Of a DNA stretch of 64,000 nucleotides, positions 14,964 through 57,173 are shown piece by piece. Position 1 is the first letter of the stretch. Every line of letters starts with the position of its first letter. A model generated the notes under the pieces. It was not told where the DNA came from. It searched no databases and saw nothing but the letters and a program-made list of their open reading frames with translations. Position numbers and translations under genes: made by a program. Source of the DNA: an uncultured Caldithrix sp. (lineage in GTDB: Bacteria > Calditrichota > Calditrichia > Calditrichales > Calditrichaceae); the NCBI GenBank assembly GCA_964532875.1, contig CAZHIZ010000001.1, forward strand, positions 12,100 through 76,099, in the 5' to 3' direction.

Positions 14964-14965
14964 TT

Positions 14966-16919: not shown

Positions 16920-16934
16920 ATCTGAGATTTCCCT

Positions 16935-18389: not shown

Positions 18390-18400
18390 TATTAGAGTTG

Positions 18401-19639: not shown

Positions 19640-19650
19640 GGCCTTACCTC

Positions 19651-28940: not shown

Positions 28941-28950
28941 CGCCCTATTT

Positions 28951-28983
28951 GGGCAAAAGAGGTGTAAGAGATGGGCAGCGCCC
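28951..28983. repeat. left inverted repeat GGGCAAAAGAGGTGTAAGAGATGGGCAGCGCCC
   Basis: Its reverse complement matches 29511..29543 at the outer 10 and inner 17 positions. Contains the small palindrome GGGCAGCGCCC. Confidence 0.8.
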
Positions 28984-29020
28984 TGATTTTTTTCACATAT
29001 AGAGAAGGAGAGAGAAAATC

Positions 29021-29473: not shown

Positions 29474-29492
29474 GGTAAATCCAGTTTGGAAT

Positions 29493-32400: not shown

Positions 32401-32729
32401 ATGATACCAAACACATCGACTTAAGCGCTGTTAAAGTCGTACCGAATCCGTACATGGTGTACAATTTGGCCGAACAGGCCTCCACGCATCCCGACCGATT
32501 TACGCACGAACTGCGATTTACCCATCTGCCGCCTAAATGTACCATTAAAATTTACACGGTCAAGGGCGATTTGGTTAAAACGATTCGGCACAATGCCCCC
32601 ACCATTGGGGAAGAACGTTGGAATTTGCAATCCGATGAAAATCTCGAAGTGTCTTACGGCGTGTATGTGTACACCGTAAAAACACCGGACGGTAAGAAAA
32701 AAATAGGCAAATTTGCCATTATTTGGTAA
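29493..32729 (+). CDS. large secreted FN3-containing protein with divergent T9SS-type C-terminal domain (cassette 1, middle gene)
   Basis: Paralog of 54374..57160, sharing blocks 'YDFEGY.IY', 'PLAQYD.ID', 'NVINGV.Y.Y..TAYD', 'PNPY.V' and the tail 'GKFAII'. Start set to the first ATG after the RAYT stop. The ORF-track start at 29367 would overlap the transposase gene by 107 nt. Confidence 0.75.
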   Translation: MVRSIQGRCPSLFSLLPRWGALFLIFNFILLFTFFAPTSLFSSPPHEQNRHSRSFLAKPASVFDRATGFMDAGKMKVMGVENFGLLCGWDHPGYQSWYPGAFHGDWGEVRWIAPVILMPKGPWGARHTNGPDLPEDRSDQYNAIESFSAIHLHDGDGPNFTDWEALDGSAEHYHGTLTQDNIPVIATSTLPNSWPEGYYDKNDHWVSTPGEHHWPGHWALDPDESSPTYGKPLPGEFVSNQDIFFIASDKYNGIRPGAVTARYGYPVGIDMEVSGYSYSTPLYENVVFFNINFIFRTKEQLTDPNSRFYDPNRHFYDGTIDSVYFAFFVDPDLPGRYLVPGSNYRQATPWAEDDYGLIYDYDGDGKIDVFLAFDKKDYFQDQVYPQNAGPVSAYGINFFRTPLVNPSDPNSPELGITGFHWFDQDEAMRPSKINAQWEKTLYALSAGKPQLMPPTERPKWFHGDNPNQDDVSLLKDYQESFPVGSRPDIQFWFSSGPFSISPGDTIPIHIGIVGATPDPGPLDAEGFPTNPPDVRFASVFEALRQADSLYKNNFIGFRPPKAPTLNAVGTKVIDKYDLPVVYGENGKVTLYWDDKAEKSFEIITREYDFEGYRIYRTQAAVEGQGQPDWGTPIYDYSGKNIVGYQPLAQYDLIDQWQGPDPLNPFFNLGKNSGLHYTFVDRNVINGVRYRYTITAYDHPNLKAGQPALESSRGNDPRLIQTVDVIPGLQPQGFVGGSVDSNVVHLSGNATGYIFVQPIDPMNVSGHTYRVTFKDSLTALKLDIYDEDAQKYLFTDYDNIWQEADLPIAQPRPIFDGIGLKIINHNVVEELNQGWQKVTADTSTYRFGVLTKTADNITAPYDYALVFGDSTSKFAASGNAAYVPFQVFNITKDPQMKHPLKLFVRNPALPWQSGDFIYFLEPDVHHKTWTITIEWDAGAKAPNPGDIYVYRTKKPFKQGDVYEIRTNAYYNDTKHIDLSAVKVVPNPYMVYNLAEQASTHPDRFTHELRFTHLPPKCTIKIYTVKGDLVKTIRHNAPTIGEERWNLQSDENLEVSYGVYVYTVKTPDGKKKIGKFAIIW
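29511..29543. repeat. right inverted repeat GGGCGCTGCCCATCTCTCTTTTCTCTTTTGCCC
   Basis: Partner of 28951..28983. Lies inside the first codons of the downstream cassette gene. Confidence 0.8.
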
Positions 32730-32764
32730 GACCTGAAAATCTGTTCATGTTAAAAGGACAGCAA

Positions 32765-33835
32765 ATGAAAAAGAAATTGATATTAAAACGATTGGCCTTC
32801 GGGCAACGGACTAAATTTGTGTTAATGTTATTAATTGGAGGGATGCTTTGTCATGGCGCCATGGCCGGAGAGTTAACCAAGGTGGGCACGACAGCGGCCA
32901 ATTTTCTCCAGTTGCGTGTCGGGGCCCGCGCCATTGCCTTGGGCGGCGCCTTTGTAGGGCTGGCCGATGATGCCAGTGCCCTCTACTGGAATGCCGCCGG
33001 TATCACCCACCTAACCGGTTTGCAGGTTTTTTATCAAAACAGCAGGCTTTACGCAGGATTAAAACACCAGACGTTCGGTTTAACGTACGCCCTCACTGCC
33101 CAGAATCATCTGGGAATTTTAGTCAATCATTTGGATATGGGCGTCATGCGGCAAACCACTTTGCAGTATCCGGAAGGGACAACCCAAAAGTTCGATGCGG
33201 CCTCCATGGCACTGGGCCTGACCTATGCCCGTCAATTAACCGATCGGGTCTCTTTCGGAGTAACGGCCAAGTACATTCAGGAACGCATCTGGCTGGAAGT
33301 GGCGCGCGGTTATGCCTTTGATATTGCCACCCTGTATGTCATCCCGGAAAAGGGACTGCGCATCGGAATGAATTTAAGTAATCTCGGCCCGGATATGGGC
33401 ATCGGCAAGGCACCCCATCTGGAATTTTACAAACGGAAACCGGATGATTTCCCGGGTAGCCCCCAACCGAAATCCCAGCTTGCCACCAAAGAATTCCCAT
33501 TGCCCTTGGCTTTCTCTCTTGGTCTCGCTTTGGATATTTGGGGACAAAATGCCCTGTTGTTTCCAAATGAAGAACATCGGCTTACAACTTCAATGAGTAT
33601 TACCGACGGTTACGACAGCCCGTTACGGACAAATTTTGGTCTGGAATATGTTTGGCACGAAGTGTTTGCCCTGAGAGCGGGCTACTACCTGGGGTACGAT
33701 ACCGAAAACTACGCTCTGGGTTTCGGATTGAATATTTACAAATACGCAAAAATCAATTTGCAAATCGATTATGCCTGGATGAATTACGGCGATTTGGGCA
33801 GCATTAACACCTATGCTTTGCAATTTAGATTTTAA
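32765..33835 (+). CDS. PorV/PorQ-family outer-membrane beta-barrel (cassette 1)
   Basis: 'GELTKVGTTAANFLQLRVGARAIALGGAFVGLADDASALYWNAAGITHL' is the hallmark N-terminal block of PorV/PorQ-type barrels. The protein ends in an aromatic residue '..YALQFRF'. Start at MKKKLILK (AAGGA upstream). Confidence 0.75.
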   Translation: MKKKLILKRLAFGQRTKFVLMLLIGGMLCHGAMAGELTKVGTTAANFLQLRVGARAIALGGAFVGLADDASALYWNAAGITHLTGLQVFYQNSRLYAGLKHQTFGLTYALTAQNHLGILVNHLDMGVMRQTTLQYPEGTTQKFDAASMALGLTYARQLTDRVSFGVTAKYIQERIWLEVARGYAFDIATLYVIPEKGLRIGMNLSNLGPDMGIGKAPHLEFYKRKPDDFPGSPQPKSQLATKEFPLPLAFSLGLALDIWGQNALLFPNEEHRLTTSMSITDGYDSPLRTNFGLEYVWHEVFALRAGYYLGYDTENYALGFGLNIYKYAKINLQIDYAWMNYGDLGSINTYALQFRF

Positions 33836-37040: not shown

Positions 37041-38172
37041 ACAGCAGGAAATTCTGAACACGATCCGGGACTTGATTCGCTTTCGTACGGTCGATGGCAA
37101 TTTCAAAGAGTTTGAAAAAGCCGTGGACTATGTGCAGAACTTTTTCAAGAACACGCCGCTTTTGGTTCAAAAATATCGGTTCAACGGGTATCCGGCTTTG
37201 GTTATTGCGCGGTCCGGCAAAAAACATCCCCGCTTTTTTCTGCAAGGCCATTTGGATGTGGTGGATGGTAAAGACGAACAGTTTTTAGCGCGCATTCAGG
37301 GCGATGCCCTGTTCGGGCGCGGCGCCGTGGATATGAAAGGCTTCGATGCCGTGGCCATGCATTTGCTACGGGATTTGGCTCGTCAGGCGCCGCAGATTGA
37401 TGCCGGTTTAATGCTTACCTTCGACGAGGAGATCGGCGGGCAAAACGGGGCGCAAAAGCTGGCCGAAATGGCATATTTCCCGGAAATTTTGATTAACGGC
37501 GACGGCGGTTACAATTACGCGGTCATCCATGCCGAAAAGGGCATTCTTAAAATCAAATTAAGCGCCAGCAGTGAATCGGGGCGCCATCCTTATCCCTGGG
37601 ACGGACAAAACGCATTTGATTTGTTAGTCCGTGATTACCAAAAAATAATGCAGCTCTTCGAAAAACAAAAACTGGCTACGGAAGACAACAATTGGTACAC
37701 CACCTACTCATCTTATGATATCAGGGTAGAAAATGAACCGTTCTTTGCCCCTCATCGCGCGGAGATGAAAGTGAATATTTATTTCACGGATGATTTAACG
37801 GCCGATGAAATGTTCGAACGTGTGAAAAGCGTGATTCGTTATTCCACCATCGAAAAATTGAGCGCCAGTGAACGGGTTTATTTGCCACCGAATGACGAAC
37901 ATGTTCTAAAAATGCGTGCCATCATGGAACGCCATTTCAGTCACCCCATTGAAATCCGTGCGGAAAACGGCTCTTCGGACGCCCGTTTCTTTACCAACAA
38001 GGGCTTTCCCATCATCATCGTCAAGATGCCGGGAGAAGATCACCACGGGCCGGACGAACGCCTTTTTATTTCCGGCTTGTTACCCATGTATCATTCGTTA
38101 AAAGAATTTTTGGGGTATTATCATGCAATCCGAGAGGACGTAAAAAATGAACAAGCTGCCACGTTATTTTAA
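37024..38172 (+). CDS. M20-family metallopeptidase (ArgE/DapE/acylase type)
   Basis: 'LQGHLDVVDG', 'GRGAVDMKG', 'FDEEIGGQNG'. Overlaps the upstream gene by 17 nt. Confidence 0.85.
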   Translation: MQPENKQQEILNTIRDLIRFRTVDGNFKEFEKAVDYVQNFFKNTPLLVQKYRFNGYPALVIARSGKKHPRFFLQGHLDVVDGKDEQFLARIQGDALFGRGAVDMKGFDAVAMHLLRDLARQAPQIDAGLMLTFDEEIGGQNGAQKLAEMAYFPEILINGDGGYNYAVIHAEKGILKIKLSASSESGRHPYPWDGQNAFDLLVRDYQKIMQLFEKQKLATEDNNWYTTYSSYDIRVENEPFFAPHRAEMKVNIYFTDDLTADEMFERVKSVIRYSTIEKLSASERVYLPPNDEHVLKMRAIMERHFSHPIEIRAENGSSDARFFTNKGFPIIIVKMPGEDHHGPDERLFISGLLPMYHSLKEFLGYYHAIREDVKNEQAATLF

Positions 38173-40147
38173 AAGGCTGACCCTTTTTGCAGGATTGCTT
38201 ATTTTGCTTTCCTGCCACACGGGCGGCCCGCAAAAAGTTGTGTACAAGGCGCAGGCGCTAAAAGCCCCCGTAGCCACACTCCAATTGGGGCCTTCCGTTT
38301 TTGTCCCGCAAATCATACTGCGGCAGCTTCATGTCTCCGAAGGCACTCCGGTTCGGGTGACCGTGAACCGCAAAAGCGAAGAATTACGCATTTACCGCCT
38401 GATCCGTCCCAGGGCCGGTTTCGCTTTGCACCGAAAATACCGCCAACAATTTGCCGTGGAATTGGGAAAAACCTATTCCCTGATTTTGCAAAAAATTCCG
38501 GCCGGTCAGGCCAGGCTTAAAGCGAAGCCGGTACGTTTTTGGGTGGAAAATTATCACGGAGACACCGCGCTGTGGAAACGTGTGGCCATCGGCGCACCGC
38601 ACGGCGATTGCGATCTGGAAACCGGTGCGGTGGTGCATTACTTGCAGAAAGAATTTCATGTTCCGGCAACAGCCGCTTACGGCGGAAGGCTTTCCTACCA
38701 CGGCATTTGGTACGATGTCAATCGACCCTTAATGAAATTGCCCAAAAAGGGCGGCGGGGTTATTCCCGAACGGGTTTGGAATGCCAAGGCCGAGAAAGTG
38801 TATCGTACCTATCAAGACAGCGTTTGGCGCAATAGCGGCCTGCATTTCGGGCAACGCTTCCGCTTTTTTACCAGTTTTCACGGTCATGATTTGACGGTGA
38901 AGTTGGCCAACGGTAAGGTAATCCAGCGCCCGGTGATCGAAGCGATGGGCATTGGTTTTAGTAAAAAAGATTTACGCAAAATCAAACGCTTTTACAATTC
39001 CCGTAAAAACGATTACTACGACAATCCGCCCATGTTGGTGTTCGGAAATTTGCCGGAAGATCGCGTTTATTATTATCAAAACATTCCGCTCAAATTTTTT
39101 TACAGCGGATTGGGTACGCGGGTGTACGGTTCTTTGCGCAGCGATCTCATTCGTTACGGATTGCATATCGAAACACCCAACAGCATGCGACTCGATCCGA
39201 AAGTGCAGCCGAAAACCGCACGCTTTTTGCACGATCTCTACCAATTTGTTCTGCAGGAAATTATTCAGCCCAAAGAAAACCGGCCTGACCTCTCAAAGTC
39301 CCTGCCCCCTGTTGCGCGGCAAATCCACCCCCGCATGATAACCGTTCCGGGCGGAGAATTTTTGATGGGAGCGCCACAAAGTGTAGGCTGGGCCAGCGAG
39401 CATCCCCAACATGCGGTGCGGGTTTCGCCCTTTAAAATAGATGCCTATGAAGTTACCAATGGGGAATTTGCCCGTTTTTTGAACCGCTGGTTTAAAAAGG
39501 GGCTGTTGGTTGTGGACAGCGGTCTGGTCAAAAACGCCCGGCATCCGGCGGAAATTTGGTTTCGTACCAGGGAAGCCGCCCCCATGAGTGAAATTTCCTT
39601 TAACGGTCGGGAATTTCAAGTGCTTAAAGGACGGGACGTATTTCCCGTGATTTACGTGAGTTGGTACGGGGCCAACGCGTTTGCTCTGGCCCAGGGCAAA
39701 CGTCTGCCCACGGAAGCCGAATGGGAAATGGCCGCTTCCTATGATTTTAAAACAAAGCACAAATATCTTTACGCCTATTCATCCGACAAAATCGACGAAA
39801 AACATTGCAACTTCCAGGACAGTCACGATCCCTTTGAATATGTTTCCGGTGCGGCTACCACACCGGTAAACTATTATTCCGTCGGCTCTCCCGAGGGCGT
39901 GTACGGAATGTCGGGCAATGTCATGGAATGGTGCTCGGATTATTATCAATACGATTATTACAAAAAGAACAAACAAAAAATCTGGGACAACCCGCAGGGG
40001 CCGGCAAAGGGGACCATGCGCACGGTGCGTGGCGGCGCCTGGAATCTGGAGCCGTGGATCGGCCGAACCACCTTTCGTCTGGGAATTAGTCCCAAAGCCA
40101 CGCTGGTCAATGTAGGGTTTCGTTGTGCCCGATCGCTGGCAAATTAA
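38147..40147 (+). CDS. lipoprotein: N-terminal unknown (possibly zinc-amidohydrolase-like) region fused to a C-terminal formylglycine-generating-enzyme (FGE/SUMF1)-type domain
   Basis: Lipobox 'LLILLSCHTG'. C-terminal 'MITVPGGEFLMGA', 'PQHAVRVSPFKIDAYEVTNGEF', 'LPTEAEWEMAAS', 'GNVMEWCSDYY', 'RTVRGGAWN', 'GFRCARS'. Confidence 0.8.
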   Translation: MNKLPRYFKRLTLFAGLLILLSCHTGGPQKVVYKAQALKAPVATLQLGPSVFVPQIILRQLHVSEGTPVRVTVNRKSEELRIYRLIRPRAGFALHRKYRQQFAVELGKTYSLILQKIPAGQARLKAKPVRFWVENYHGDTALWKRVAIGAPHGDCDLETGAVVHYLQKEFHVPATAAYGGRLSYHGIWYDVNRPLMKLPKKGGGVIPERVWNAKAEKVYRTYQDSVWRNSGLHFGQRFRFFTSFHGHDLTVKLANGKVIQRPVIEAMGIGFSKKDLRKIKRFYNSRKNDYYDNPPMLVFGNLPEDRVYYYQNIPLKFFYSGLGTRVYGSLRSDLIRYGLHIETPNSMRLDPKVQPKTARFLHDLYQFVLQEIIQPKENRPDLSKSLPPVARQIHPRMITVPGGEFLMGAPQSVGWASEHPQHAVRVSPFKIDAYEVTNGEFARFLNRWFKKGLLVVDSGLVKNARHPAEIWFRTREAAPMSEISFNGREFQVLKGRDVFPVIYVSWYGANAFALAQGKRLPTEAEWEMAASYDFKTKHKYLYAYSSDKIDEKHCNFQDSHDPFEYVSGAATTPVNYYSVGSPEGVYGMSGNVMEWCSDYYQYDYYKKNKQKIWDNPQGPAKGTMRTVRGGAWNLEPWIGRTTFRLGISPKATLVNVGFRCARSLAN

Positions 40148-40157
40148 AGGAGAGCGC

Positions 40158-42158
40158 ATGTCCGCTTTTTTTAAAACGATTGTCCCATTACTATTTTTGC
40201 TGTACGGTTTTGCTTTGCCCAAAGCGGTAACTCAAAAGCAAGCCTTGCGTGTGGCAAATACGGTTTTGCAAAGAGAAAAAGAATTCGCGGGCCACGGTCC
40301 CTTTGCGGTTGGCGAAATACGTAAAATTGCTTGCTCGGCCCCAACGGATTCTTTGTACCTCGTTTCGCTTAAACCGCGGGGCTTTTTGCTGCTGAATGCC
40401 GACGACCGATTAAGGCCGCTGATCGGCTATTCGCGGCAAAATACTTTTTCCGGCGGGGCAACGGTACGGCTATTATTGGAAAAAATAGTGCGGGTGCAAC
40501 GTCGCGTGGCTCTCTTCGATACCCGCTGGGTGCAAAAAAATCGCCTGAACTGGCGCTCGTTATCAAAAGGCGGTAGCCCGGTTTTGGCCAAAACGAGCGG
40601 GGACAGCGTGTATTATTTTCCCACGCCGGTTTGGGGCCAGGGCATGGTGAACGGCGTGTACGTGTTCAATTATTACACGCCGAATCACTGGTCGGCCGGA
40701 TGTGTGGCCACGGCTCTGGCCGAAGTATTGGCCTTTTTCCGGTGGCCGCCGGTGGGAACCGCTTCTCATTGCTACACGGAAAACGATGCCGGCCAACTGT
40801 GCGCCGATTACCAAAATACCCATTACGATTGGCCTGACATTCTGCCGAAATACATCAATGAGCACACCACAGCGCAGCAGCGCCGCGCAGCGGGATTGTT
40901 GACTTACCATGCGGCTATCAGCGTGAATATGGATTTTTCGGCCAACGGTTCAACGGCCAATGTGTCTAACGTTCCCTATGCCTTGCACCATTATTTTCGC
41001 TTTAGCGGTCATTACAAATCGGCCGGAGAAACCGATTTTTGGACGGAGCTTATCCATAACATGAAAGATGCCCGTCCGGCGATTTTGGCCATTTCCCGTT
41101 CCAGCGACGGATTCGGCCATGCGATTGTTGCCGACGGCTATTCCGAACACAACGGGTTATTCCATTTGAATATGGGCTGGAACGGCAGCGATAACGGTTG
41201 GTACGATATTCGCGGCGATTGGAACGTGAGTGGCTACGACATCGTCAACGGAGCCACCAAGGGCATCGTCCCCAGTCCCATGATTTGTCCCGAGGTAACC
41301 ATGCTTTCTGCCAGGCAGTTTATTTTAAGCTGGCGTGTCAGCCGCTACCAGAAAGCCTGCTACTACCAGGTGCAGCAGGCTCAGGCTGCCGGCGGGCCCT
41401 GGACCACCCTTGCGGAAGCGGTGACCGATACCTTTTTGCAGATCAGCGTACCGCAAATATCGCGCTATTACTATCGGGTACGTGCGCGCCGGGACGATAT
41501 TTGGTGGGATTGGTCGGCCGTGCAGTCGGTTAGTTTGGGCGGCCCGCGCTACCTGACCTTTAATGTGGACATGCGTTACCAGACCCTGACGCAAGGCGAC
41601 AGCGTAGTTTTGCGCGGTAATGTGCCGCCGCTGAAAGGAAGTGTAAACAGTCGGGCTTTGCAGGATGAAGACGGCGATTCGGTTTATTCTCTTACCTTGC
41701 CCTTTGACGTGGCCTATGTGGGACATGAATTGTTGTACCGCTTTGCCATTGCCGGTGCCGCCGGTACGCATCTGGAATCCTTTAACCGGAGCTATGTGAT
41801 CGGAGCTCAGGAATACCAGAATTTGGATACGGTTTTTTTCGATGATTACACGGCATTGGCTAGGCAGGATTTGCTTCCCGAGCATAGCCGATTGATCGGT
41901 AATTTCCCCAATCCCTTCAATCCGGTTACGTTCATTCGCTATCGCATTGCCAAAGAGAAAGGGCGCCCTTCCGTGCATGTCCGGCTGACGATTTACAACG
42001 TTTTGGGACAAACCGTAGCGCGATTGATCGATAAGAATCAATCGGCCGGAGAATATCGCGTTCGTTTCCGGGCCGACGGTTTACCGGCCGGTTTGTATTT
42101 TTGTCGCTTACAGACGGATGATTGCAGCGGAGTGCGTAAGATGATTTTAATCAAATAA
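40158..42158 (+). CDS. C10 (streptopain-like) cysteine peptidase with Spi-type propeptide, Ig/CBM-like domain and T9SS C-terminal sorting domain
   Basis: Catalytic Cys 'WSAGCVATALAEVLAFF' and His 'GHAIVADGY', then 'MGWNGSDNGWYD'. CTD 'FPNPFNPVT...LTIYNVLGQTV...GLYFCRL...RKMILIK'. Start at MSAFFK (AAGGAGAG upstream). Confidence 0.85.
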   Translation: MSAFFKTIVPLLFLLYGFALPKAVTQKQALRVANTVLQREKEFAGHGPFAVGEIRKIACSAPTDSLYLVSLKPRGFLLLNADDRLRPLIGYSRQNTFSGGATVRLLLEKIVRVQRRVALFDTRWVQKNRLNWRSLSKGGSPVLAKTSGDSVYYFPTPVWGQGMVNGVYVFNYYTPNHWSAGCVATALAEVLAFFRWPPVGTASHCYTENDAGQLCADYQNTHYDWPDILPKYINEHTTAQQRRAAGLLTYHAAISVNMDFSANGSTANVSNVPYALHHYFRFSGHYKSAGETDFWTELIHNMKDARPAILAISRSSDGFGHAIVADGYSEHNGLFHLNMGWNGSDNGWYDIRGDWNVSGYDIVNGATKGIVPSPMICPEVTMLSARQFILSWRVSRYQKACYYQVQQAQAAGGPWTTLAEAVTDTFLQISVPQISRYYYRVRARRDDIWWDWSAVQSVSLGGPRYLTFNVDMRYQTLTQGDSVVLRGNVPPLKGSVNSRALQDEDGDSVYSLTLPFDVAYVGHELLYRFAIAGAAGTHLESFNRSYVIGAQEYQNLDTVFFDDYTALARQDLLPEHSRLIGNFPNPFNPVTFIRYRIAKEKGRPSVHVRLTIYNVLGQTVARLIDKNQSAGEYRVRFRADGLPAGLYFCRLQTDDCSGVRKMILIK

Positions 42159-42209: not shown

Positions 42210-44531
42210 ATGAATAAGATTGTTACCGTACTCATCTTGCTTTTAAGCATGGCCTTTTTGTGGGCGCAAGAGAATTTGAGTAAGGTGTGCGAAGTGGACT
42301 ATTTTAACGCCACCCGTTACAGCGGGGGACGCAACATCGCGCGTACACCTTCCGGAAATGTGGTGGTGGTTTTCGAACCCGGGGCCAATTACACCAACGG
42401 CAGTCAGGATATTCATTACGCCATTTACAACAGTATTTTCGGTAGTTGGGATGTGGCTAAACTGAGCAATTCGCCTTCCAATGCCGCCGGAACACCGGCC
42501 ATTGTTTCCGATCCCGATTCCAATGTTTGCTATGCCGTGTGGAAGCAAAAAAACGAAAGCGGCGACCGCGATTTGATGTTTTCCAAATTGACCTTTCTCG
42601 ATCCCTACACGAGCACCTGGAGTGAACCCGTGGTAGCGGACAACGTGAACACCAATACCGGCGTGTGCACCGTGGATATTGCGGATAACGGCGTCCTGTT
42701 CGGTTTGTTTTCCGTCTGGGATAAGGGCCTGAACTATCCGGCCAACATCTATTGCAGTCGTAGCGAAGACGGCGGAGCAACCTGGACAACCGACAATTTA
42801 ACTTCGGAATTTCCCACGCCCAATGAACTGCCTTTCGAATGGATAGATGTTTCCTTAGCTCCCGGTAAAAACGGGGTCATGTATGCCGCCTGGGAAGACA
42901 AACCCAAGGAATTGACCAATTCTTACGAAATTCTGTTCACCAAATACACGCCGGGACAGGGTTGGGAACGCCCGCAGGTTATTACACCCATCGTGGAAGG
43001 GGAAGCCTTTTTGCAACACTATGTGGATGGCTGTACGCCCCGTCCGGGTGCCGTTTCCGTTTACGAAATGGGGCCTGCCTCGTACAAGTTCGCCGGAGAA
43101 AGCTCGGTTATTTATTACGATAACGGGACTTCGGAAGCATTGTCTTGCATGTTCAATCCCTACTACATCGTTCCGCCCGAAACCAAAGATCAATGGGTAG
43201 CGGATGTGGTTCATTTTTTCAACCTGAATTCGGGTGACAGCATCTTGTTTGTGGATGATGACAATAAGTACAATAACGAAAAGATCATGACCGATGCCCT
43301 GGATAAGATGAACGCCCCTTACACGACATTCGATTGCGGTAATCTGGACGGCATGCCCGAACGGGTTCCCGACGCCGATTTGTTGAAACGCTACGCTCTG
43401 GTTATCTGGTTTACCGGTGATGACTACAACGGCAATTTGGCTTTTTGGGATATCAACGATACGCTGAACACGGATTTGAAAAATTACATGGATACGCAAG
43501 GTAAAAAATTGTGGGTCATCGGACGCGATTGGATTTACGATCGCTACGGAGCGGCTCCGGATACGTTCCGCACGGGCGACTTCATGTACGATTATCTGGG
43601 TATTGCTTCCTACGATTGTCAATCCTGGGCAGACGACGGCAAGACCGGAGTTTCCGAACTGGATTTGGTGAGCGACAACGGCTTGCAAATGACCGATATC
43701 GAAAAATTATCCTGGGGGAATGCCGGTATTTGGCAGGGCAAGGTATCCATGGCCAGCGATCCCGCGGGCAATGTGCACATCGTGTACGATCAGGACAAGG
43801 GCAAGCACGTATTTTACATGATGTTCGACGGTACGAATTGGAGCGATCCGATCCAAATCGACGCCACGCCCGATTCCGTACCTATCGTGCGCCCCAACAT
43901 TGCTTGCGATCCCAATTACGGCTTGTACGTTGTCTGGACTCAGGCCACGGGCAAGGACACGGTGGAAGGTAAGGAAAAAACGGTGTACAATGTCTTCTAC
44001 GCGACTTCGCCCGACGGCGGCAAAACCTGGAACGCTCCGCAGCAATTAAGCCAAACCACCGTGGCCGATGCCAAAGGCTATTCCGTAAGAAATCCGACCA
44101 TTGGCGAACAGGTGCGTAAACCCATTGAAGGCGTGTTCGAAGGCGGTGCCGATGTGGTGTGGACGGAATACAATCCGGAATCGACTATGGGATATTACAT
44201 CATGTACGCACGCATCCCGTATGTGGGTACCTTAACCTCCATCGATCAGGGCAAAAGCGGGCATCCGTACACGTTTGCCTTACGCGCCAACTATCCCAAT
44301 CCGTTCAATCCGCAAACGACATTGCGCTTCGAAATTCCCCGACAGAGTCGTGTGCGTCTGGAAATTTACAACGCCCTGGGGCAAAAGGTGGCCACATTGA
44401 TCGATGAGATGATGAAGGCCGGAAGCTACCGGAAAACCTGGCAGGCAGGAAGCATGCCCAGCGGAATCTATTTTGCCCGTTTAAAAGCCGCAGGCAGGGA
44501 AGCGGTTCAAAAAATGATCTTGCTTAAGTAG
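42210..44531 (+). CDS. BNR/sialidase-like beta-propeller protein with an inserted ~240-aa domain and T9SS CTD
   Basis: BNR motifs 'SRSEDGGATWT' and 'SPDGGKTWN'. An insert at residues ~268-510 is homologous to domains in the next gene. CTD 'NYPNPFNPQTT...LEIYNALGQKV...GIYFARL...QKMILLK'. AGGAGG SD. Confidence 0.8.
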   Translation: MNKIVTVLILLLSMAFLWAQENLSKVCEVDYFNATRYSGGRNIARTPSGNVVVVFEPGANYTNGSQDIHYAIYNSIFGSWDVAKLSNSPSNAAGTPAIVSDPDSNVCYAVWKQKNESGDRDLMFSKLTFLDPYTSTWSEPVVADNVNTNTGVCTVDIADNGVLFGLFSVWDKGLNYPANIYCSRSEDGGATWTTDNLTSEFPTPNELPFEWIDVSLAPGKNGVMYAAWEDKPKELTNSYEILFTKYTPGQGWERPQVITPIVEGEAFLQHYVDGCTPRPGAVSVYEMGPASYKFAGESSVIYYDNGTSEALSCMFNPYYIVPPETKDQWVADVVHFFNLNSGDSILFVDDDNKYNNEKIMTDALDKMNAPYTTFDCGNLDGMPERVPDADLLKRYALVIWFTGDDYNGNLAFWDINDTLNTDLKNYMDTQGKKLWVIGRDWIYDRYGAAPDTFRTGDFMYDYLGIASYDCQSWADDGKTGVSELDLVSDNGLQMTDIEKLSWGNAGIWQGKVSMASDPAGNVHIVYDQDKGKHVFYMMFDGTNWSDPIQIDATPDSVPIVRPNIACDPNYGLYVVWTQATGKDTVEGKEKTVYNVFYATSPDGGKTWNAPQQLSQTTVADAKGYSVRNPTIGEQVRKPIEGVFEGGADVVWTEYNPESTMGYYIMYARIPYVGTLTSIDQGKSGHPYTFALRANYPNPFNPQTTLRFEIPRQSRVRLEIYNALGQKVATLIDEMMKAGSYRKTWQAGSMPSGIYFARLKAAGREAVQKMILLK

Positions 44532-44668: not shown

Positions 44669-47491
44669 ATGCGAAGAACTTTTGCTTATTTAATGGTAGG
44701 AATGTTCCTTTTGTTAAGCGTACATTCCGTTTTTTCGGGTACGCTCAAAATCCTTTTAGTGGATGATGATAATTATTCCAGTCCGGATCATCTGCCCTAC
44801 ATCGAACAGGCCATTACCGATGCCGGTTACACCTACGATCTGTTCAATGCACAGGATAGCGCCCGTTCGCCCGATGCGGCTCTCATGTCGCAGTACAATC
44901 TGGTGTTCTGGTACAATGCCAATGACGGTGTGGGCGGTTATTTTTGGGACGGCCGCGACACCGTAAATACCCAGATCGTTTCCTATTTAAATCAGGGCGG
45001 CTGGATGTGGATCATGGGCAACGACATTATTTACGATCGATACGGCGGCGCTCCGGATACGTTTTCTACCGGCGATTTTTTGTACGATTATTTCGGTTTG
45101 CAGCGCTACGACGTACAATCCAAAAAAGATGACGGCGGAAGCGGTGTGCCCATGCTCATTCGCGTGCCCGGGCAGGATGTGGCTTCGGCTCCGGACACCA
45201 TTCGGTGGAAATATTCCGGCCTGTATTATGTGGACGGTTGTACGCTGCGCCCGGAAGCACAGGCCGTGTACAACATGGGCGACGATTCCTACGTTCTGGC
45301 CGGTTACACGTCCGCTTCGTTTTACGATAACGGAACGTTCAAAGCGTTCGGCTGCTATTTTGATGCCTATTACATTAAACCGGAGGAAGACCGCACCACC
45401 TTGTTCAAAAGCGTTTTGGATTATTTCGCCTCACAATTGGCGCCGACTTTTCCCCCGACGGAATTTTCTTTGCAGCAACCGGAGAACGGACGTTGGTTTG
45501 CCGTAGGCCAGGCCGATGATTTCGTGCATTTTAGTTGGGAGAAAAGCAGTGACCCGGACGGGACACCCGTAATCTATCGCTTGTATTTGGGAACCACGGC
45601 GGATGTCTCGGAAAGTTCAGTTCTGGAAATGGATACTTCGGCCACGGCGGTGGATATTTCGAATCGTGATTTGCAAAATTTAGTGGCCGTCGGCGATACG
45701 CTTCACCTGTATTGGAGCGTGCGGGCTAAAGACGGAGAGGGCGAAACCACCTGGGCCAGCGATACATTTGCCGTTACTCTGGTGAATATCGAAAATCAGC
45801 CACCGAGCGCGTTTCATTTGCAGCAACCGGAAGACGGTGCCTCGTACGCGGTTACCAATATGACGGATAGTTTGGTGTTCTCATGGCAAAGCAGTAACGA
45901 TCCGGAAGGCGGGACGTTGCAGCAGACCTTTTACTATTGGAGCAGCGGAGAAGGCGCCTTTCACGAAATGCTTTCTGTGCCCCAGGGGGAACATTCCGCT
46001 GCTCTGAGCAACGAACGCTTGCTTTCTTTGCTCGGCGGACAGGATAGCCTGCGCCTGCTGTGGACAGTGGTAGCAAGTGATGTCTTTGGCGCCGAAACCG
46101 CTGCCGATACGTTTGCCGTGGTCATCATCAATCAATACAATGTGATTACTCAGGGCCCTGAGTTGCAATATCCGGTGAATCATCATCATTTCTTTTTCCG
46201 TCAGGGCGGAGCCGCCGAACTGCATTTTTCATGGAAACCGGCTCAGGCCTATCACAATCCTTTGTACACCGTGAAAGTTCGGGACGAAGCCGATAATGTC
46301 GTGTTGCAAAGCGATACCACGGGCACAGAGACAACGCTGAATTTTGCTCCCGTGCTTGATGCCCTCACGGCCGATACGGTGAACTTCACGTGGAATGTAA
46401 CCGCCTCTCTGACCGATTCGGTCCATCAAATGGCCGTTAACGGGCCTTACACTCTTACCTTCGTGCGTCAGGTGGCCAAAGTAATGGTGGTGTTCGATGA
46501 CAACCACACCAATCACAACGATATCATTCGGGATGCTTTGAACGATCTTAATCTGGATTACACGGATTTTGATTGCGGAAACGACGGCAGCGATCTCCCG
46601 GCCCAGATTCCCACTTTTGATCAACTGAAAGCAAACGATCTCGTTTTTTGGTTCACGGGCAATGACGGCAAGGGATTGGCCCTGTGGAACGGACACGACA
46701 CGTTAAACACGGATTTGCAGCACTATCTGGATAACGGTGGCAAATTATGGGTGGCCGGAATCGACTTCTTGTACGATTTGTACGGCGGCGCGCCGGATAC
46801 GTTTCAGGCCGGTGATTTCGTCTTCGATTATTTGGGCATTAGCAGTTACGACGCCCAGTCCAAAAAGGACGACGGTGGTAAAGGGTTACCAATGGCCATT
46901 TTAGACCGCAATGATGCCCCGCAGGGTTTGGAGAGCATCGACACCTTGCTCTGGAAATACAGCACTCTGTGGTACGTGGATGCCATTACCCCGGTGGAAG
47001 GCGCCAAGGTGGTCTATCGTATGGGGCCGGCCGATTATGCTCTGGCCGGTGATCCGGTTTTTATCTGTTACCAGACGCCGGATTTCCTGACTTTGACCAC
47101 GACCTTTAATCCGCGGCAGTTTAAGGAAGACGAGCATCGTAAAATGTTAAAGCACTTTTTGTTCGACGGATTGAACTGGATGCAACGGCAAACCTTAACC
47201 GCTCTGCCCGGCAAAGAGACCGTCCTACCCACGGCTTTTACCATCAGCCAGAATTTTCCCAATCCGTTTAATCCCACAACGTCGATTCCCGTGGCCTTAC
47301 CGGCAACAGGAAAGGTGGCCTTAACGATTTACAACGTTCTTGGGCAAAAGATTGTGCAAAAGGAATATCGCCTAAGTGCCGGCCGTCATCTGCTCAGGGT
47401 AAACGGCTTGAATATGGCATCCGGGATTTATTATTATCAGGTCACTTTCAAGAAACATTCTCTTACGGGTAAGATGATTTTGCTCAAATAA
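44669..47491 (+). CDS. multi-domain T9SS cargo: unknown domain X, three ~105-aa Ig/FN3-like repeats, a second domain X, then the CTD
   Basis: Signal peptide 'MVGMFLLLSVHSVFSG'. Two internal copies of the 'VDDDN...LVFWF.GNDG...LW..G.D..YD.YGGAPDTF..GDF..DY.G...YD.QSKKDDGG.G.P' domain. CTD 'NFPNPFNPTT...LTIYNVLGQKI...GIYYYQV...GKMILLK'. Start at MRRTF (AAGGAGA upstream). Confidence 0.85.
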   Translation: MRRTFAYLMVGMFLLLSVHSVFSGTLKILLVDDDNYSSPDHLPYIEQAITDAGYTYDLFNAQDSARSPDAALMSQYNLVFWYNANDGVGGYFWDGRDTVNTQIVSYLNQGGWMWIMGNDIIYDRYGGAPDTFSTGDFLYDYFGLQRYDVQSKKDDGGSGVPMLIRVPGQDVASAPDTIRWKYSGLYYVDGCTLRPEAQAVYNMGDDSYVLAGYTSASFYDNGTFKAFGCYFDAYYIKPEEDRTTLFKSVLDYFASQLAPTFPPTEFSLQQPENGRWFAVGQADDFVHFSWEKSSDPDGTPVIYRLYLGTTADVSESSVLEMDTSATAVDISNRDLQNLVAVGDTLHLYWSVRAKDGEGETTWASDTFAVTLVNIENQPPSAFHLQQPEDGASYAVTNMTDSLVFSWQSSNDPEGGTLQQTFYYWSSGEGAFHEMLSVPQGEHSAALSNERLLSLLGGQDSLRLLWTVVASDVFGAETAADTFAVVIINQYNVITQGPELQYPVNHHHFFFRQGGAAELHFSWKPAQAYHNPLYTVKVRDEADNVVLQSDTTGTETTLNFAPVLDALTADTVNFTWNVTASLTDSVHQMAVNGPYTLTFVRQVAKVMVVFDDNHTNHNDIIRDALNDLNLDYTDFDCGNDGSDLPAQIPTFDQLKANDLVFWFTGNDGKGLALWNGHDTLNTDLQHYLDNGGKLWVAGIDFLYDLYGGAPDTFQAGDFVFDYLGISSYDAQSKKDDGGKGLPMAILDRNDAPQGLESIDTLLWKYSTLWYVDAITPVEGAKVVYRMGPADYALAGDPVFICYQTPDFLTLTTTFNPRQFKEDEHRKMLKHFLFDGLNWMQRQTLTALPGKETVLPTAFTISQNFPNPFNPTTSIPVALPATGKVALTIYNVLGQKIVQKEYRLSAGRHLLRVNGLNMASGIYYYQVTFKKHSLTGKMILLK

Positions 47492-47509: not shown

Positions 47510-47548
47510 CCCTCGCATGCAAATGAGGTGTGCGGGGGATTTTATTTG
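47510..47548 (+). terminator. rho-independent terminator after 44669..47491
   Basis: Stem CCCTCGCA/TGCGGGGG (one G-U pair) followed by ATTTTATTT. It lies inside the ORF-track N-terminus of 47517..47909. Confidence 0.6.
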
Positions 47549-47549
47549 G

Positions 47550-47909
47550 ATGAAACGGTTCTTGTTAAGAAAAGTGCCAAACTGGTGGTCGCTAACGGTG
47601 CCGATTTTAAGGTTAATAATGGCAGCTGAACTGTTTGAAAGTATATGCCGCTTTCGGCTGTACCAGAATTATCCCAATCCGTTTAACAGCGTCACAAGCG
47701 TTAAATTTGACTTGCCTTTTATCAGCGATGTGGAATTAACCGTATTTAATGTGCTCGGTCAACAAATCATCAAGGTGAAAAAGGCGCAGCTTGCAGCGGG
47801 AAGTCACGTCATCCGTCTGGATATGAATCGGCAGGCTTCGGGTCTCTATTTTTATCGTCTTAAAGCCGGACGCCGGAAAGCCATTAAAAAACTTTTGTTA
47901 GTTAAGTGA
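47550..47909 (+). CDS. CTD-only minigene (weak signal-peptide-like N-terminus + T9SS C-terminal sorting domain, no cargo domain); possibly a gene remnant
   Basis: 'YQNYPNPFNSVTSVKFDL...VELTVFNVLGQQI...GLYFYRLKAG..KAIKKLLLVK' is a complete CTD. Only ~30 aa precede it. No convincing SD. The start was chosen downstream of the terminator. Confidence 0.45.
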   Translation: MKRFLLRKVPNWWSLTVPILRLIMAAELFESICRFRLYQNYPNPFNSVTSVKFDLPFISDVELTVFNVLGQQIIKVKKAQLAAGSHVIRLDMNRQASGLYFYRLKAGRRKAIKKLLLVK

Positions 47910-51505: not shown

Positions 51506-54352
51506 ATGAATAACAAATTAATGCTCTTCATCTTTATTCTATCTTTTTTATTGAGTAGTGCCTTTGCCGCCACAACGGGTAAAATTGTAGGGCGGGTAAC
51601 GGATGCAGCTACCGGCGAACCTCTGGCGGCAGCGAACATCGTTATTAAAGGCATGCCCCTGGGTGCAGCTACCGATCTGGACGGTTATTATGTGATATTA
51701 AATGTTCCTCCCGGGGTTTACACCTTGCAAGCCATTTATGTGGGCTACTCGGTGAGCGAAGTAAAAAATGTGGAAGTGAAAGTCGGATTAACCACTACCA
51801 TCAATTTTAAATTAAAAGAAGCCAGTTATGAAGGCGAAACCATTGTAACGGTTGCGGAACGCCCTTTAATTCAAAAAGACGCTACGGCTACGGCGGCCGT
51901 AGTTACCGCCCAGGAAATGAAAGCTTCTCCGATCGAGAATTTTACAGATATTGCTCAAATTAAAGCCGGCGTTAACGTGGGCCCGGACGGCGCCTTGCAC
52001 TTTAGAGGCGGGCGCTCCTCGGAAGTGGCTTATATCGTCGATGGTATCCCCGTAACCAATGCCATCGACGGGGGAATGTCCATGGATGTTTCGACCAATG
52101 CCATTGAAGAGCTTTCATTGATTACCGGTTCGTTTAATGCGGAATACGGGCAGGCCATGTCGGGTGTGGTCAACATCGTGACCAAGGAAGGCGGTTCCAA
52201 GTTTAGCGGTAATGTTTCCGTGCATGCCGGTGATATCGTAACACGCCCCCAAAACAGTAAATATTTTTTACCGGAAATAAAAAAGATCGATCCCCTTAAC
52301 ACCGTCGATACGCGTTTCGGCCTTTCCGGCCCGTTATTCAAAGACCGGGTAACATTTAATGTTTCCGGTCGTTATTTGCGAGACAACGGTTACCTGTACG
52401 GACAGCGTATTTATGATACACGCAATATCTTTTTTTCCAATGTTACCGGCGACAGTGCCTATGTTTCGCTCAATTCGCAAAAACGTTTCAACCTGCAAAG
52501 TAAATTGAAATTTCGCCTGACCAATTCCATCGATTTTTATTTTACGACTCTGTATGAAAACAGAAAATACCAAAACTATAATCACCGCCGGAGCAAAGTT
52601 CCGCAAGGGATCCCGTGGAATTTCGACAATTCGTTGCAGTTTATCGGTAAAATCAATCACCAATTCAGTTCCAAGGCTTTCTATTCTTTAGCAGTAGGTT
52701 TTCTGAATAGAAATTACAAATATTATCTTGATAAAGATCCGTTCTCTACCAAATATGTGTGGAGCGGTTACAGTACGGGCCAATATTTTTATCCCGGCGG
52801 AACGGATAATCATCGCGTGTTTGAAGATCAAAAACAATTAACGCTCAAATGGGATTTGACCTCCCAGATATTAAAAAATCATGAAGTGAAAACCGGGCTG
52901 GAATTCAAGTACCTTTCGCTGGCCCGTCATTCCTATTATGTGGATCCGGACCGCCGCGACGAACCGTATGTGGACGCCAATCATAACGGCATGTACGATC
53001 CGGGAGAAGAATTCACCGATATTAATTTCGACGGCAAATGGAATCCGGCCAGAGACGACAACGGCGACGGAATTCCCGGGAATATTATCGAATTACAAGG
53101 GTGGACGAATGACAAATGGCACCGCTATCCCAAGGAATTTGCCTATTATGTACAGGATAAAATCGAATTGAAAGATATGGTCTTGAATGTGGGTTTGCGT
53201 TTCGATTATTTTGAACCGGACGGACACGTTTTGGCCGATCCTACCGATCCGGATATCAATTCGCCCATCAAAAACGAAAACATTTGGAAAGATTACGGGA
53301 CGGACGGCATCCCCAATACGCACGATCCCGACGGTACCGAGGGTAACGGTGTGCAGGATCCGGGAGAACCCATTGTTACTTTGCAGGAAAGGGAAAAGTA
53401 TTGGTACAAAGATGTCAAACCCAGCATGCAGCTAAGTCCGCGTATTTCGTTTGCCTTTCCCATTTCGGCAAACGGTAAGTTGTTCTTTTCCTACGGACAT
53501 TTTTTCCAATTGCCGCCCTATCGCTTTTTGTACACCGATTACAATAATCACGTAAAACCCGGTTTAATTCGTACAGATATGGGAAATCCGGCCCTGAAGC
53601 CTCAAAAGACGATTAGCTACGAGGTGGGTATTGAGCAACAATTAATGCCCGGTGTGGCCGGTTATTTAAAAATCTACCAACGCGATATTCGCAATATCAT
53701 CGGACAAAAGATCATTATTTTGCCCAATACCGATGCCTATGCCCTTTACATAAACCATGATTACGGGCGCGTGCGCGGTATTAATTTTAGTGTGGTCAAA
53801 CGCTTCTCCAGTCATTTTTCGGCAACGATCGATTACACTTATCAAATTGCCGAAGGAAATGAATCCAGTCCCACGGCTACACGAACTAAGTTCCGCTTAA
53901 AAGAAGAAGCCATTAAGAAAATCGTGCCGCTCGATTGGGATCAAACCCATACGCTTCGATTAAACGGCATGTATTCCAAACCGGAAGATTGGATGGTCAG
54001 CATGATCGGGCGCATCGAATCGGGATATCCGTACACACCTATGGGAATCAATGAAATTGTCAAGATTTCGGAAGAAAACAGTGCGCGTAAAATTCCCATT
54101 ATCAAATTCGATTTAACCTTGCGTAAATACTTCAAATTGCAGATGGCCGATACCAAATATCTCTTTTCGGTTTATGCCAAAGTGTACAACTTGTTTGATC
54201 GGTTGAATGAAAAATACGTTTGGGATTCGACAGGACGCGCCACGTACGGTTTAGGCTTGTTCGGCGGTAAATTCGATGAAGATTGGCAGCGCAGACCGCA
54301 TTGGTTCTACAAACCGCGTGAAATCTTTTTAGGCGTTGAATTTAGTTTTTGA
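51506..54352 (+). CDS. TonB-dependent-receptor-like outer-membrane barrel with N-terminal CarboxypepD_reg domain (cassette 2)
   Basis: 'GKIVGRVTDAATGEPLAAANIVIKGMPLGAATDLDGYYVILNVPPGVYTLQAIYVGY'. Plug-like 'LSLITGSFNAEYGQAMSGVVNIVTKEG'. Terminal '...FLGVEFSF' with C-terminal Phe. AGGAGG SD. Confidence 0.87.
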   Translation: MNNKLMLFIFILSFLLSSAFAATTGKIVGRVTDAATGEPLAAANIVIKGMPLGAATDLDGYYVILNVPPGVYTLQAIYVGYSVSEVKNVEVKVGLTTTINFKLKEASYEGETIVTVAERPLIQKDATATAAVVTAQEMKASPIENFTDIAQIKAGVNVGPDGALHFRGGRSSEVAYIVDGIPVTNAIDGGMSMDVSTNAIEELSLITGSFNAEYGQAMSGVVNIVTKEGGSKFSGNVSVHAGDIVTRPQNSKYFLPEIKKIDPLNTVDTRFGLSGPLFKDRVTFNVSGRYLRDNGYLYGQRIYDTRNIFFSNVTGDSAYVSLNSQKRFNLQSKLKFRLTNSIDFYFTTLYENRKYQNYNHRRSKVPQGIPWNFDNSLQFIGKINHQFSSKAFYSLAVGFLNRNYKYYLDKDPFSTKYVWSGYSTGQYFYPGGTDNHRVFEDQKQLTLKWDLTSQILKNHEVKTGLEFKYLSLARHSYYVDPDRRDEPYVDANHNGMYDPGEEFTDINFDGKWNPARDDNGDGIPGNIIELQGWTNDKWHRYPKEFAYYVQDKIELKDMVLNVGLRFDYFEPDGHVLADPTDPDINSPIKNENIWKDYGTDGIPNTHDPDGTEGNGVQDPGEPIVTLQEREKYWYKDVKPSMQLSPRISFAFPISANGKLFFSYGHFFQLPPYRFLYTDYNNHVKPGLIRTDMGNPALKPQKTISYEVGIEQQLMPGVAGYLKIYQRDIRNIIGQKIIILPNTDAYALYINHDYGRVRGINFSVVKRFSSHFSATIDYTYQIAEGNESSPTATRTKFRLKEEAIKKIVPLDWDQTHTLRLNGMYSKPEDWMVSMIGRIESGYPYTPMGINEIVKISEENSARKIPIIKFDLTLRKYFKLQMADTKYLFSVYAKVYNLFDRLNEKYVWDSTGRATYGLGLFGGKFDEDWQRRPHWFYKPREIFLGVEFSF

Positions 54353-54373
54353 CAGCTTTGGTGGAGGAAAATC

Positions 54374-57160: not shown

Positions 57161-57173
57161 ACGGAGCATGATC

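Follow-up and report, generated by a model that had tools for sequence, protein, structure and literature searches.

A putative circularly permuted domain of predicted amidotransferase-like fold within the propeller of a type IX secretion cargo protein

Results

Two adjacent genes carry three copies of one domain

We analyzed a stretch of 64,000 nucleotides (nt) from an uncultured Caldithrix sp. of the Calditrichota (GenBank assembly GCA_964532875.1, contig CAZHIZ010000001.1, positions 12,100 to 76,099), hereafter called the window, in which two neighbouring genes, A and B, contain three copies of a domain of about 230 residues. According to the open reading frame (ORF) calls the two genes are separated by 137 nt, and all of their features given below lie on the plus strand. 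Gene A (42210–44531) encodes 773 amino acids (aa) comprising a signal peptide, a beta-propeller built of BNR (bacterial neuraminidase repeat) elements that is interrupted by the apparently permuted domain, and a type A sorting domain of the type IX secretion system (T9SS). Gene B (44669–47491; 940 aa from its ATG) encodes a signal peptide, a first canonical copy of the domain (B1; 44741–45430, aa 25–254), a spacer of SusE-like and immunoglobulin (Ig)-like modules, a second canonical copy (B2; 46475–47182, aa 603–838) and a T9SS sorting domain. The SusE-like module of the spacer (45509–45697, aa 281–343) was recognized by PF14292 with an E value of 5.7e-7 and 30.1 bits, above the cut-off of 25.2. 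Internal repeats were sought in the spacer by BLAST and none was found.

The sorting domain of A (44292–44528, aa 695–770) was matched by PF18962 (E 6.9e-9) and TIGR04183 (E 4.3e-10), and that of B (47255–47479, aa 863–937) by both Pfam and NCBIfam. The TIGR04183 scores, 39.4 bits for A and 38.3 bits for B, exceed the curated NCBIfam cut-off of 23. Both N-termini are hydrophobic and signal-like, and PorV-like genes are present in the window. By these sequence features, A and B are cargo proteins of the T9SS with a type A sorting domain.

Within A, the N-terminal part of the propeller (42276–42995, aa ~23–262) contains four beta-sheets in the secondary structure of the model and an Asp-box, SRSEDGGATW, at aa 183–192. 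It is followed by the first piece of the insert (43017–43223), which corresponds to the C-terminal segment of the canonical domain (positions 160–228 of its hidden Markov model, HMM), carries the motif 'YVDG...' and consists of four strands and the terminal helix (strands at 273–313 and helix at 323–336 in the AlphaFold2 model). A linker of five residues (43224–43238, aa 339–343), close in length to the 8-residue linkers of natural tandem arrays, then connects the old C-terminus to the old N-terminus. The second piece (43239–43730) corresponds to the canonical N-terminal segment (HMM 3 to ~160), contains in order the motifs 'ILFVDDDN', 'LVIWFTGDD', 'LWVIGRDWIYDRYGAAPDTF' and 'QSWADDGKTG', and ends at the invariant W502. 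The C-terminal part of the propeller (43731–44240, aa ~508–677) has a second Asp-box, ATSPDGGKTW, at aa 598–607. The first residue past the insert, aa 508 (nt ~43731–43733) at the junction with the propeller, is an Arg in 45 of 50 orthologues of A and a Trp in the window protein and four others.

The insert of A aligns end to end with a doubled canonical copy

The two canonical copies of B share 40% identity over 232 columns (E 5e-58). In a BLASTP comparison of the two proteins, aa 270–337 of A matched the C-terminal segment of the domain (B 186–253), and aa 345–484 of A matched its N-terminal segment (B 28–163). We then aligned the insert to tandemly doubled canonical copies. With doubled B2, a single colinear block was obtained (query 4–241 on 168–404; 45% identity, E 3e-60); its 244 alignment columns cover 237 positions, exactly one domain length. 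Doubled B1 gave an equivalent result (43% identity, E 1e-58). The HMM envelopes delimit the insert to aa 270–338 and 344–~507 of A (nt ~43017–43730), within about 10 nt of the 43011–43739 given in an initial annotation of this DNA. The cut point of the permutation lies directly before the 'YVD' motif. Furthermore, the B2 model has 18 helices and strands, of which 17 were found again in the model of A, in permuted order and with constant offsets, at a predicted local distance difference test (pLDDT) value of about 90. Judged from these alignments, the insert of A is a genuine circular permutation of the domain.

The order of a C-terminal part followed by an N-terminal part is what a piece cut from a tandem array would show, and such arrays can indeed be aligned with the insert, so that A could carry the tail of one copy and the head of the next, which would be non-functional or fold separately. 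This reading is highly improbable. The two pieces sum to exactly one domain with no residue lost or doubled, they are joined by a linker of only 5–8 residues, and both are predicted at a pLDDT of about 90 with every strand and all but one short helix present. In addition, all of the pocket residues are strongly constrained in 50 orthologues, down to 46% identity. Since the end-to-end match to the doubled copy spans exactly one domain, we regard the insert as one permuted domain and rejected the two-partial-copies arrangement. The initial annotation, which had itself raised that alternative, had proposed three copies of the domain in two adjacent T9SS proteins, one of them permuted and lodged within a BNR propeller; the sorting-domain scores, the single domain-length block and the structural alignments of the propeller described below bear out each of these points.

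The permuted order is shared by all A-type relatives

About 58 full-length relatives of A, with 44–88% identity, were retrieved. Their most specific name is 'T9SS type A sorting domain-containing protein', and they stem from metagenome-assembled genomes (MAGs) labelled Chlorobi, Bacteroidota and Marinimicrobia. The HMM of the canonical domain matched all 59 A-like proteins in the permuted order (~160–228, then 3–~155), with a common break point at HMM ~157–161. Among the relatives mapped, this order was seen only in the A-type host. In seven relatives of about 995 residues (P0019–P0024 and P0031), a canonical copy follows the propeller, so that the permuted and the canonical forms coexist in one polypeptide. 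The insert is under the same constraint as the rest of the protein in the 50 orthologues; its invariant residues include D273, N316, V348, D350, D351, N352, W400, G403, W413 and N420, as well as D444, G464, Q471, G480 and W502.

One A-like protein of 1,003 aa (P0056), encoded on a 3.6-kb contig from JGI, has a more complex insert: a C-terminal part, a truncated N-terminal part (HMM 3–108), a second C-terminal part, a full N-terminal part and a fragment matching HMM 107–155. This partial duplication of the insert could have arisen recently within the gene or result from mis-assembly; it shows that the insert region is prone to unequal recombination.

Tandem arrays in relatives are colinear with the insert

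Two relatives contain tight tandem arrays of the canonical domain separated by 8-residue linkers, P0068 (23–252 / 260–485) and P0070 (24–253 / 262–451). The insert of A is colinear across the junction between copy 1 and copy 2 of both proteins, over 242–246 columns with 35–36% identity (E 3e-38 and 1e-37). Conversely, once re-circularised, the insert aligned end to end with canonical copies at 43–48.5% identity. No protein with the order N-terminal part, propeller, C-terminal part, which would favour a permutation of the whole gene, was seen among the relatives mapped.

Neighbour-joining trees of 218 domain copies were computed with BLOSUM62 or Kimura distances and bootstrapped. The permuted copies and the canonical copies of two B-like proteins (P0105 and P0117) formed a clade in 99 of 100 bootstraps. 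We restrict our claim to this clade, because the permuted copies alone did not hold together as a strictly monophyletic group with Kimura distances or in the bootstraps. That the permutant has a single origin is supported mainly by the shared host, insertion site and break point, and the permutation most likely occurred once, in the lineage of the B-like proteins.

These data are consistent with an origin by duplication and trimming, which is in part shown and in part inferred. A stretch that starts halfway through one copy and ends halfway through the following one would have been taken from a tight tandem array. Both ends of the permuted domain would then fall in what was formerly a single loop and lie side by side, so that short connectors would suffice to fit the domain into a loop between two blades of a sialidase-like propeller. 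Because only one loop is cut and the chain ends adjoin, the permutant is well suited to insertion with short connectors.

Predicted fold of the domain and of the host propeller

The AlphaFold2 model of B2, computed from an alignment of 8 sequences, has a pLDDT of 83.3 and a predicted template modeling (pTM) score of 0.85. Foldseek comparison of this model with the PDB returned 44 matches at E <= 1e-3, all with the class I glutamine-amidotransferase-like fold. The best match was domain B of glycoside hydrolase family 42 (GH42; 5xb7, E 2e-7, TM 0.52–0.59). Amidotransferases of the TrpG, PabA, GuaA and HisH types followed (1qdl_B, 1wl8, 3fij and GMP synthase; E 1e-6 to 1e-4, TM ~0.5), and other matches comprised OST48/Wbp1, NDST1 and Agd3. 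The predicted structure thus shows a class I glutamine-amidotransferase-like (flavodoxin-like alpha/beta) fold for the domain.

The model of the full A protein (alignment of 50 sequences) reached a pLDDT of 88.1, with about 90 across the insert. Foldseek aligned it with sialidases, a pseudaminidase and other BNR propellers (E 7e-10 to 1e-5), and because these alignments span both flanks of the insert, the flanks are considered to form one propeller. At the sequence level, Pfam BNR_2 scored 30.0 bits on the flanks, just below its cut-off of 31.4, and the profile of the whole A family, searched against PDB sequences, matched only the sorting domain and the Asp-box regions, with a sialidase match at E 0.08. 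With regard to the Arg triad, the Tyr/Glu nucleophile pair and the acid/base Asp of GH33 sialidases, the A family has the invariant residues R41, R45, R120, R561, E56, E229, E240, Y573 and Y666. The sequence match to sialidases is confined to the Asp-boxes. The insert lies after the last strand of the fourth sheet and before the first strand of the next one; the secondary structure and the positions of the Asp-boxes therefore place it in an inter-blade loop. In propellers, such a loop is usually located on the active-site face.

With the non-catalytic domain B of GH42 as the best structural match, accessory domains of OST48/Wbp1, NDST1 and Agd3 also matched, and the catalytic triad absent, the domain might be a purely structural or oligomerisation scaffold without a ligand pocket of its own, like domain B in GH42 enzymes. 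We think this unlikely. A scaffold is not expected to preserve a dozen near-invariant Asp, Asn, Trp and Gln residues in surface loops across phyla, and most members consist of a single domain and a sorting tail, which leaves nothing to scaffold.

The domain is not covered by a named family

Searches of Pfam and NCBIfam with the three window copies gave no match at E <= 0.1. None of 88 single-domain relatives had a Pfam or NCBIfam match covering the domain; ThuA was touched in two of the 88, at E 0.016. Among 38 multi-domain relatives, DUF4159 was touched in three, with a best E value of 1.2e-6. The DUF4159 match of one relative (P0101) scored 21 bits against a cut-off of 25.9 and spanned only profile positions 33–88 of 202, in the region of strands 3–4. 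Searches of PDB sequences with two profiles at E <= 10 yielded no credible homologue, one being empty and the other giving a single chance match (E 1.8), and a literature search found no description of the domain. Because no match in Pfam, NCBIfam or the PDB sequences covers it, we propose that the domain represents a new family within a known superfamily.

Membership of ThuA (PF06283) was rejected on these results, since the window copies gave no match and only two relatives were touched at E 0.016. DUF4159 (PF13709) was likewise rejected, the window copies being unmatched and P0101 scoring below the gathering threshold; the link of the domain to both families is at the clan level only. Assignment to GH42 domain B (Glyco_hydro_42M) was also discarded, as the likeness is structural only and no GH42 domain occurs in A, B or their relatives. 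The initial annotation had suggested a flavodoxin-like, ThuA-like or class-I-glutamine-amidotransferase-like fold and had recognized no named family. The structural matches of B2 agree with the former, and the lack of a confident match in the family and PDB sequence searches with the latter.

Conserved residues are predicted to lie in loops, and the amidotransferase triad is missing

Conservation was examined in 88 canonical copies and in 50 permuted copies of the A family. Among the residues most conserved in distant members (B2 numbering), V7 and D9 close strand 1 and W60 closes strand 3, W72, D76 and N79 belong to the loop after strand 3, and W93, G96 and D98 to strand 4 and the following elbow; D102, F111, G122, Q129, D134, G138, W161, D170, Y182 and Y189 complete the set. 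By the order of the secondary-structure elements, the conserved Asp, Asn, Trp, Tyr, Gln and Gly residues would be located in loops that follow strands 1, 3, 4 and 5 and the last strand, at the edge where proteins of this fold usually have their ligand pocket. With Asp, Asn, Trp, Tyr and Gln at the C-terminal edge of the sheet, such a pocket would be suited to a sugar, a cation or a polar polymer.

Neither Cys nor His is conserved among the 88 canonical or the 50 permuted copies, and the domain is therefore not an amidotransferase. A functional class I enzyme was rejected for this reason and for the absence of any match to an amidotransferase (GATase) sequence model, although the fold is of that type. 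D98, in the turn after strand 4, would occupy the position of the nucleophilic Cys of amidotransferases, and an 'F-N/D-P' motif after the last strand would take the place of their 'F-H-P-E', with Asn or Asp at the His site. These equivalences are drawn from the order of the elements only, because hhalign of the domain profile against an approximate E. coli PabA sequence gave a probability of 0.1.

The acidic residues raise the question of an enzyme. The domain might be a glycosidase, esterase, amidase or peptidase that reuses the amidotransferase pocket, with acidic residues or an Asp/Ser elbow nucleophile, and that acts beside the C10 protease encoded by the upstream gene. D9 is invariant in both sets, and D98, D134 and D170 are conserved at 90% or more in the canonical set. 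In the A family, D444 (equivalent to D102), N352, N420, Q471, D273 and N316 are invariant. An Asp or a Ser stands at the nucleophile position, and the amidotransferase-like fold hosts several peptidase families (S51, C26 and C56). However, the elbow residue of the A family is Asp in 27 and Ser in 23 of the 50 orthologues, an exchange unusual for an essential nucleophile and arguing against one at this position. Nor is there a conserved His or another general base, the equivalent of the His being Asn or Asp. With two to four copies in array and with Ig-like and lectin-like partners, the proteins resemble binding proteins more than enzymes, and no sequence signal to any catalytic family was detected. 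We thus view an enzymatic role as rather unlikely.

Size, range and architecture of the family

An exhaustive profile search returned 1,383 cluster representatives (50% identity level) at E <= 1e-3, of which 374 were found at <= 1e-10 and 144 at <= 1e-30. The top 150 representatives are mostly proteins of about 345 residues with the layout signal, domain and sorting tail. A word-indexed search for homologues gave few matches, none of them named: 6 for a single sequence and 15 for a profile of 25 sequences. In a genome scan the domain was found in Calditrichota, Bacteroidota and Melioribacteraceae, nearly all records being MAGs. The closest relatives of B2 belong to the Calditrichota (68–75% identity), and the Bacteroidota lineages with the domain include Flavobacteriales, Chitinophagaceae, Lewinellaceae, Cytophagia, Bacteroidales and Lentimicrobiaceae. 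Among DNA runs, the window was found only in hydrothermal-vent metagenomes.

Multi-copy members carry two to four copies per protein. Across the family, the fusion partners are Big_2, SusE, LTD, Big_5, Laminin_G_3, PKD, NPCBM, dockerin and cohesin, all of them modules for adhesion or binding; in the 38 multi-domain relatives the partner was never a protease. The SusE-like module occurs in gene B and in 5 of these 38 relatives. Three very long proteins (P0228, P0229 and P0240; 1,742–4,805 aa) contain three to five repeats of only the first ~100 domain positions (strands 1–4), which may represent a shorter related module.

Genomic neighbourhood

Gene A is preceded by a gene for a secreted cysteine protease of the C10 (streptopain) family (40125–42158, +), with an I69 propeptide and a T9SS sorting domain (PF01640, E 7.8e-41). 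Upstream of it, a gene for a lipoprotein-like protein of 666 aa (38147–40147, +), with a C-terminal FGE-sulfatase domain (PF03781, E 1.5e-49), is the first member of an FGE-sulfatase / C10 / A triad. The N-terminal half of this protein, about 390 residues, has no Pfam match. In the window, the order is a TonB-dependent receptor, a 1,120-aa protein without Pfam match, a PorV-like protein, an OPT oligopeptide transporter and a small ORF, followed by a helix-turn-helix (HTH) regulator, an M20 peptidase, the FGE-sulfatase lipoprotein, the C10 protease with its sorting tail, A and B. The same genes from PorV through A are found again in a genome in which A is only 52% identical, and the triad is conserved in further genomes (L025–L029 and L006), down to 52% identity of A. 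Its very short or overlapping junctions suggest an operon. One of these loci (L027) keeps a similar run of three genes, in which a 1,058-aa cut product without Pfam match takes the place of the 1,120-aa protein of the window and is followed by PorV and OPT.

The protease is also found near multi-copy genes. In close Calditrichia MAGs, the orthologue of B is followed by a large gene of the C10 family. In five loci of the Bacteroidota type (L010, L011, L035, L036 and L037), one to three genes with two or three copies of the domain are followed, at 27–70 nt, by a Peptidase_C10 gene with a sorting tail. A FecR gene comes after the C10 gene in four of the five, the L011 DNA examined ending just past the C10 gene. 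A SusC-like transporter follows FecR in three loci, the L010 stretch ending soon after FecR. A weak SusD match was seen at L036, and a divergent sigma factor of the extracytoplasmic function (ECF) type at L036 and L037. These loci are organised like a polysaccharide-utilisation locus, except that they encode a cysteine protease and lack a glycoside hydrolase. We limit the protease link to the A-type and multi-copy proteins, because single-domain genes lack such a neighbourhood.

This tight and repeated adjacency, with gaps of 27–70 nt and in both Calditrichota and Bacteroidota, could mean that the domain proteins work with the C10 protease itself, anchoring it at the surface, acting as its chaperone or inhibitor or being the substrate that it preferentially processes, and do not bind the nutrient. 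T9SS proteases of the gingipain type do form complexes with adhesin domains. This role is nevertheless quite improbable: an I69 inhibitory propeptide is already encoded by the C10 genes themselves, hundreds of single-domain members lack a C10 gene next to them, and the fold offers no hint of an inhibitor.

Downstream of B, an ORF of 130 aa (47517–47909, +) encodes a T9SS sorting domain (PF18962, E 1.9e-11) and nothing else. Over its last 85 residues it shares 70.6% identity with the C-terminal end of a C10-family protein of 1,148 aa, which is encoded after the B orthologue of a related Calditrichia MAG (L002, 8055–11501), and the ORF looks like the remnant of a deleted gene. The window further contains two paralogous three-gene sets (26022–33835 and 51506–58187, +), each with a TonB receptor carrying CarboxypepD_reg, a protein of ~930–1,120 aa without Pfam match and a PorV-like outer-membrane protein; their pairwise identities are 29%, 31% and 36%. 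Two tandem genes for lipoprotein-like Laminin_G_3 proteins of 362 aa (19651–20739 and 20751–21839, minus strand) agree at 1,088 of their 1,089 nt and have the same protein product; the pair stems either from a very recent tandem duplication or from the assembly. Finally, the stretch ~12000–20000 has a G+C content of 0.36–0.40, versus 0.45–0.50 elsewhere. It is part of a surface-polysaccharide synthesis cluster starting at ~10150, with genes for GT4 glycosyltransferases, a UDP-GlcNAc 2-epimerase, a CDP-glycerol glycerophosphotransferase, an asparagine synthase and a Polysacc_synt flippase, and its composition suggests a variable or acquired locus.

Discussion

We propose that genes A and B encode surface proteins with a domain of a new family, that the copy in A is a permutant derived from a tandem array and inserted into a propeller, and that the domain serves in the capture of substrate. 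To this explanation as a whole we assign a probability of roughly 0.55. Its functional part, taken separately, is more tentative: possibly, the domain is a surface module that captures a polymeric substrate, a glycoprotein or protein or its glycan. It would bind or present the polymer at the cell surface, beside the secreted C10 protease and the TonB-dependent or SusC-like importers, in a role comparable to that of the SusE/F-type binding proteins of polysaccharide utilisation loci. In A, the domain would be held rigidly against the propeller, and the two might form a composite binding or active surface.

Several points weigh against this explanation. The capture function is derived from genes and models; the locus was present in no RNA run, and its sequence occurred only in DNA runs from vent metagenomes. 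Both the clustering of the conserved residues in a single pocket and the contact of the insert with the active face of the propeller are predictions from the order of elements and from what is general to these folds. The many strongly conserved acidic residues would equally suit an enzyme or a metal site. In the neighbourhoods examined, the single-domain members of Bacteroidota show neither a conserved gene context nor a C10 gene. As to the origin, the permuted copies were strictly monophyletic with BLOSUM62 distances but not with Kimura distances, and the bootstrap values were 19 of 60 and 23 of 100.

A wider proposal would make the domain a new kind of T9SS-anchored module for the capture or the processing of substrate that defines 'protein/glycoprotein utilisation loci' in Bacteroidota, Calditrichota and their allies, composed of domain proteins, C10, FecR and a SusC-like importer, with A as a composite enzyme whose active site would be shared by the propeller and the insert. 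We regard this extended version as rather unlikely. The family nevertheless provides a lead into protease-centred utilisation loci: the C10 proteases, the OPT and M20 genes and the TonB/SusC-like importers point to a surface machinery degrading proteinaceous polymers, in lineages common in sediments and at hydrothermal vents.

What is new here is a domain family of known fold together with a clean natural permutation and insertion, and not a new kind of system. The record of the permutation is unusually complete, as the canonical domain, the tight arrays, the permuted product and proteins with both forms are all extant. The permutant of A may accordingly serve as a test case for permutation-aware search tools and for the engineering of domain insertions, and as a teaching case. 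At least 1,383 representatives are at present called 'hypothetical' or 'T9SS sorting domain-containing', and one new model would annotate them all.

The closest structural parallels are the class I glutamine amidotransferases (TrpG/PabA, the N-domain of GuaA, and HisH), with which the domain shares the order strand 1, helix, strand 2, helix, strand 3, helix, strand 4, elbow, helix, antiparallel section and C-terminal helix. It differs from them by the absence of the Cys-His-Glu triad and of any sequence signal, no synthase domain accompanies it, and its predicted location is outside the cell, anchored through the T9SS. Domain B of GH42 enzymes (beta-galactosidases and alpha-L-arabinopyranosidase) is likewise a triad-less amidotransferase-like module in a carbohydrate-active context. 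Here, however, there is no Pfam match and no adjoining GH42 TIM barrel, the conserved residues are others, and the domain occurs alone or in arrays at the cell surface. ThuA and DUF4159, uncharacterised families of the same Pfam clan, resemble the domain through the faint sequence echoes in 2 of 88 and 3 of 38 members; proteins of both families are often secreted and devoid of the triad.

Protein A as a whole recalls the bacterial sialidases NanI, NanA/B/C and NanJ, which are among its top Foldseek matches and whose BNR propeller is also interrupted by an extra domain. These enzymes carry a small beta-domain within blade 2, whereas the insert of A is a 240-residue alpha/beta domain after the fourth sheet, and the sequence likeness is limited to the Asp-box regions. 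The glycan-binding proteins SusE and SusF are similarly multi-module, located at the cell surface, encoded beside SusC/SusD-like transporters and under sigma/anti-sigma control. We infer here an analogy of role only, since their fold is different, the proteins described here are anchored through the T9SS and not by lipidation, and the partner is a C10 protease instead of a glycoside hydrolase.

Natural permutations have reportedly arisen by duplication and trimming in the swaposins, compared with the saposins, and in permuted DNA methyltransferases. As in those cases, the product in A is one domain with the C-terminal part ahead of the N-terminal part. The precursor postulated there has a counterpart here, since a tight tandem array exists in relatives and is colinear with the insert. 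Unlike the swaposin and methyltransferase permutants, that of A doubles as a domain inserted into another host protein, and the canonical and permuted forms stand side by side, in adjacent genes of the window or together in one polypeptide (P0019–P0024).

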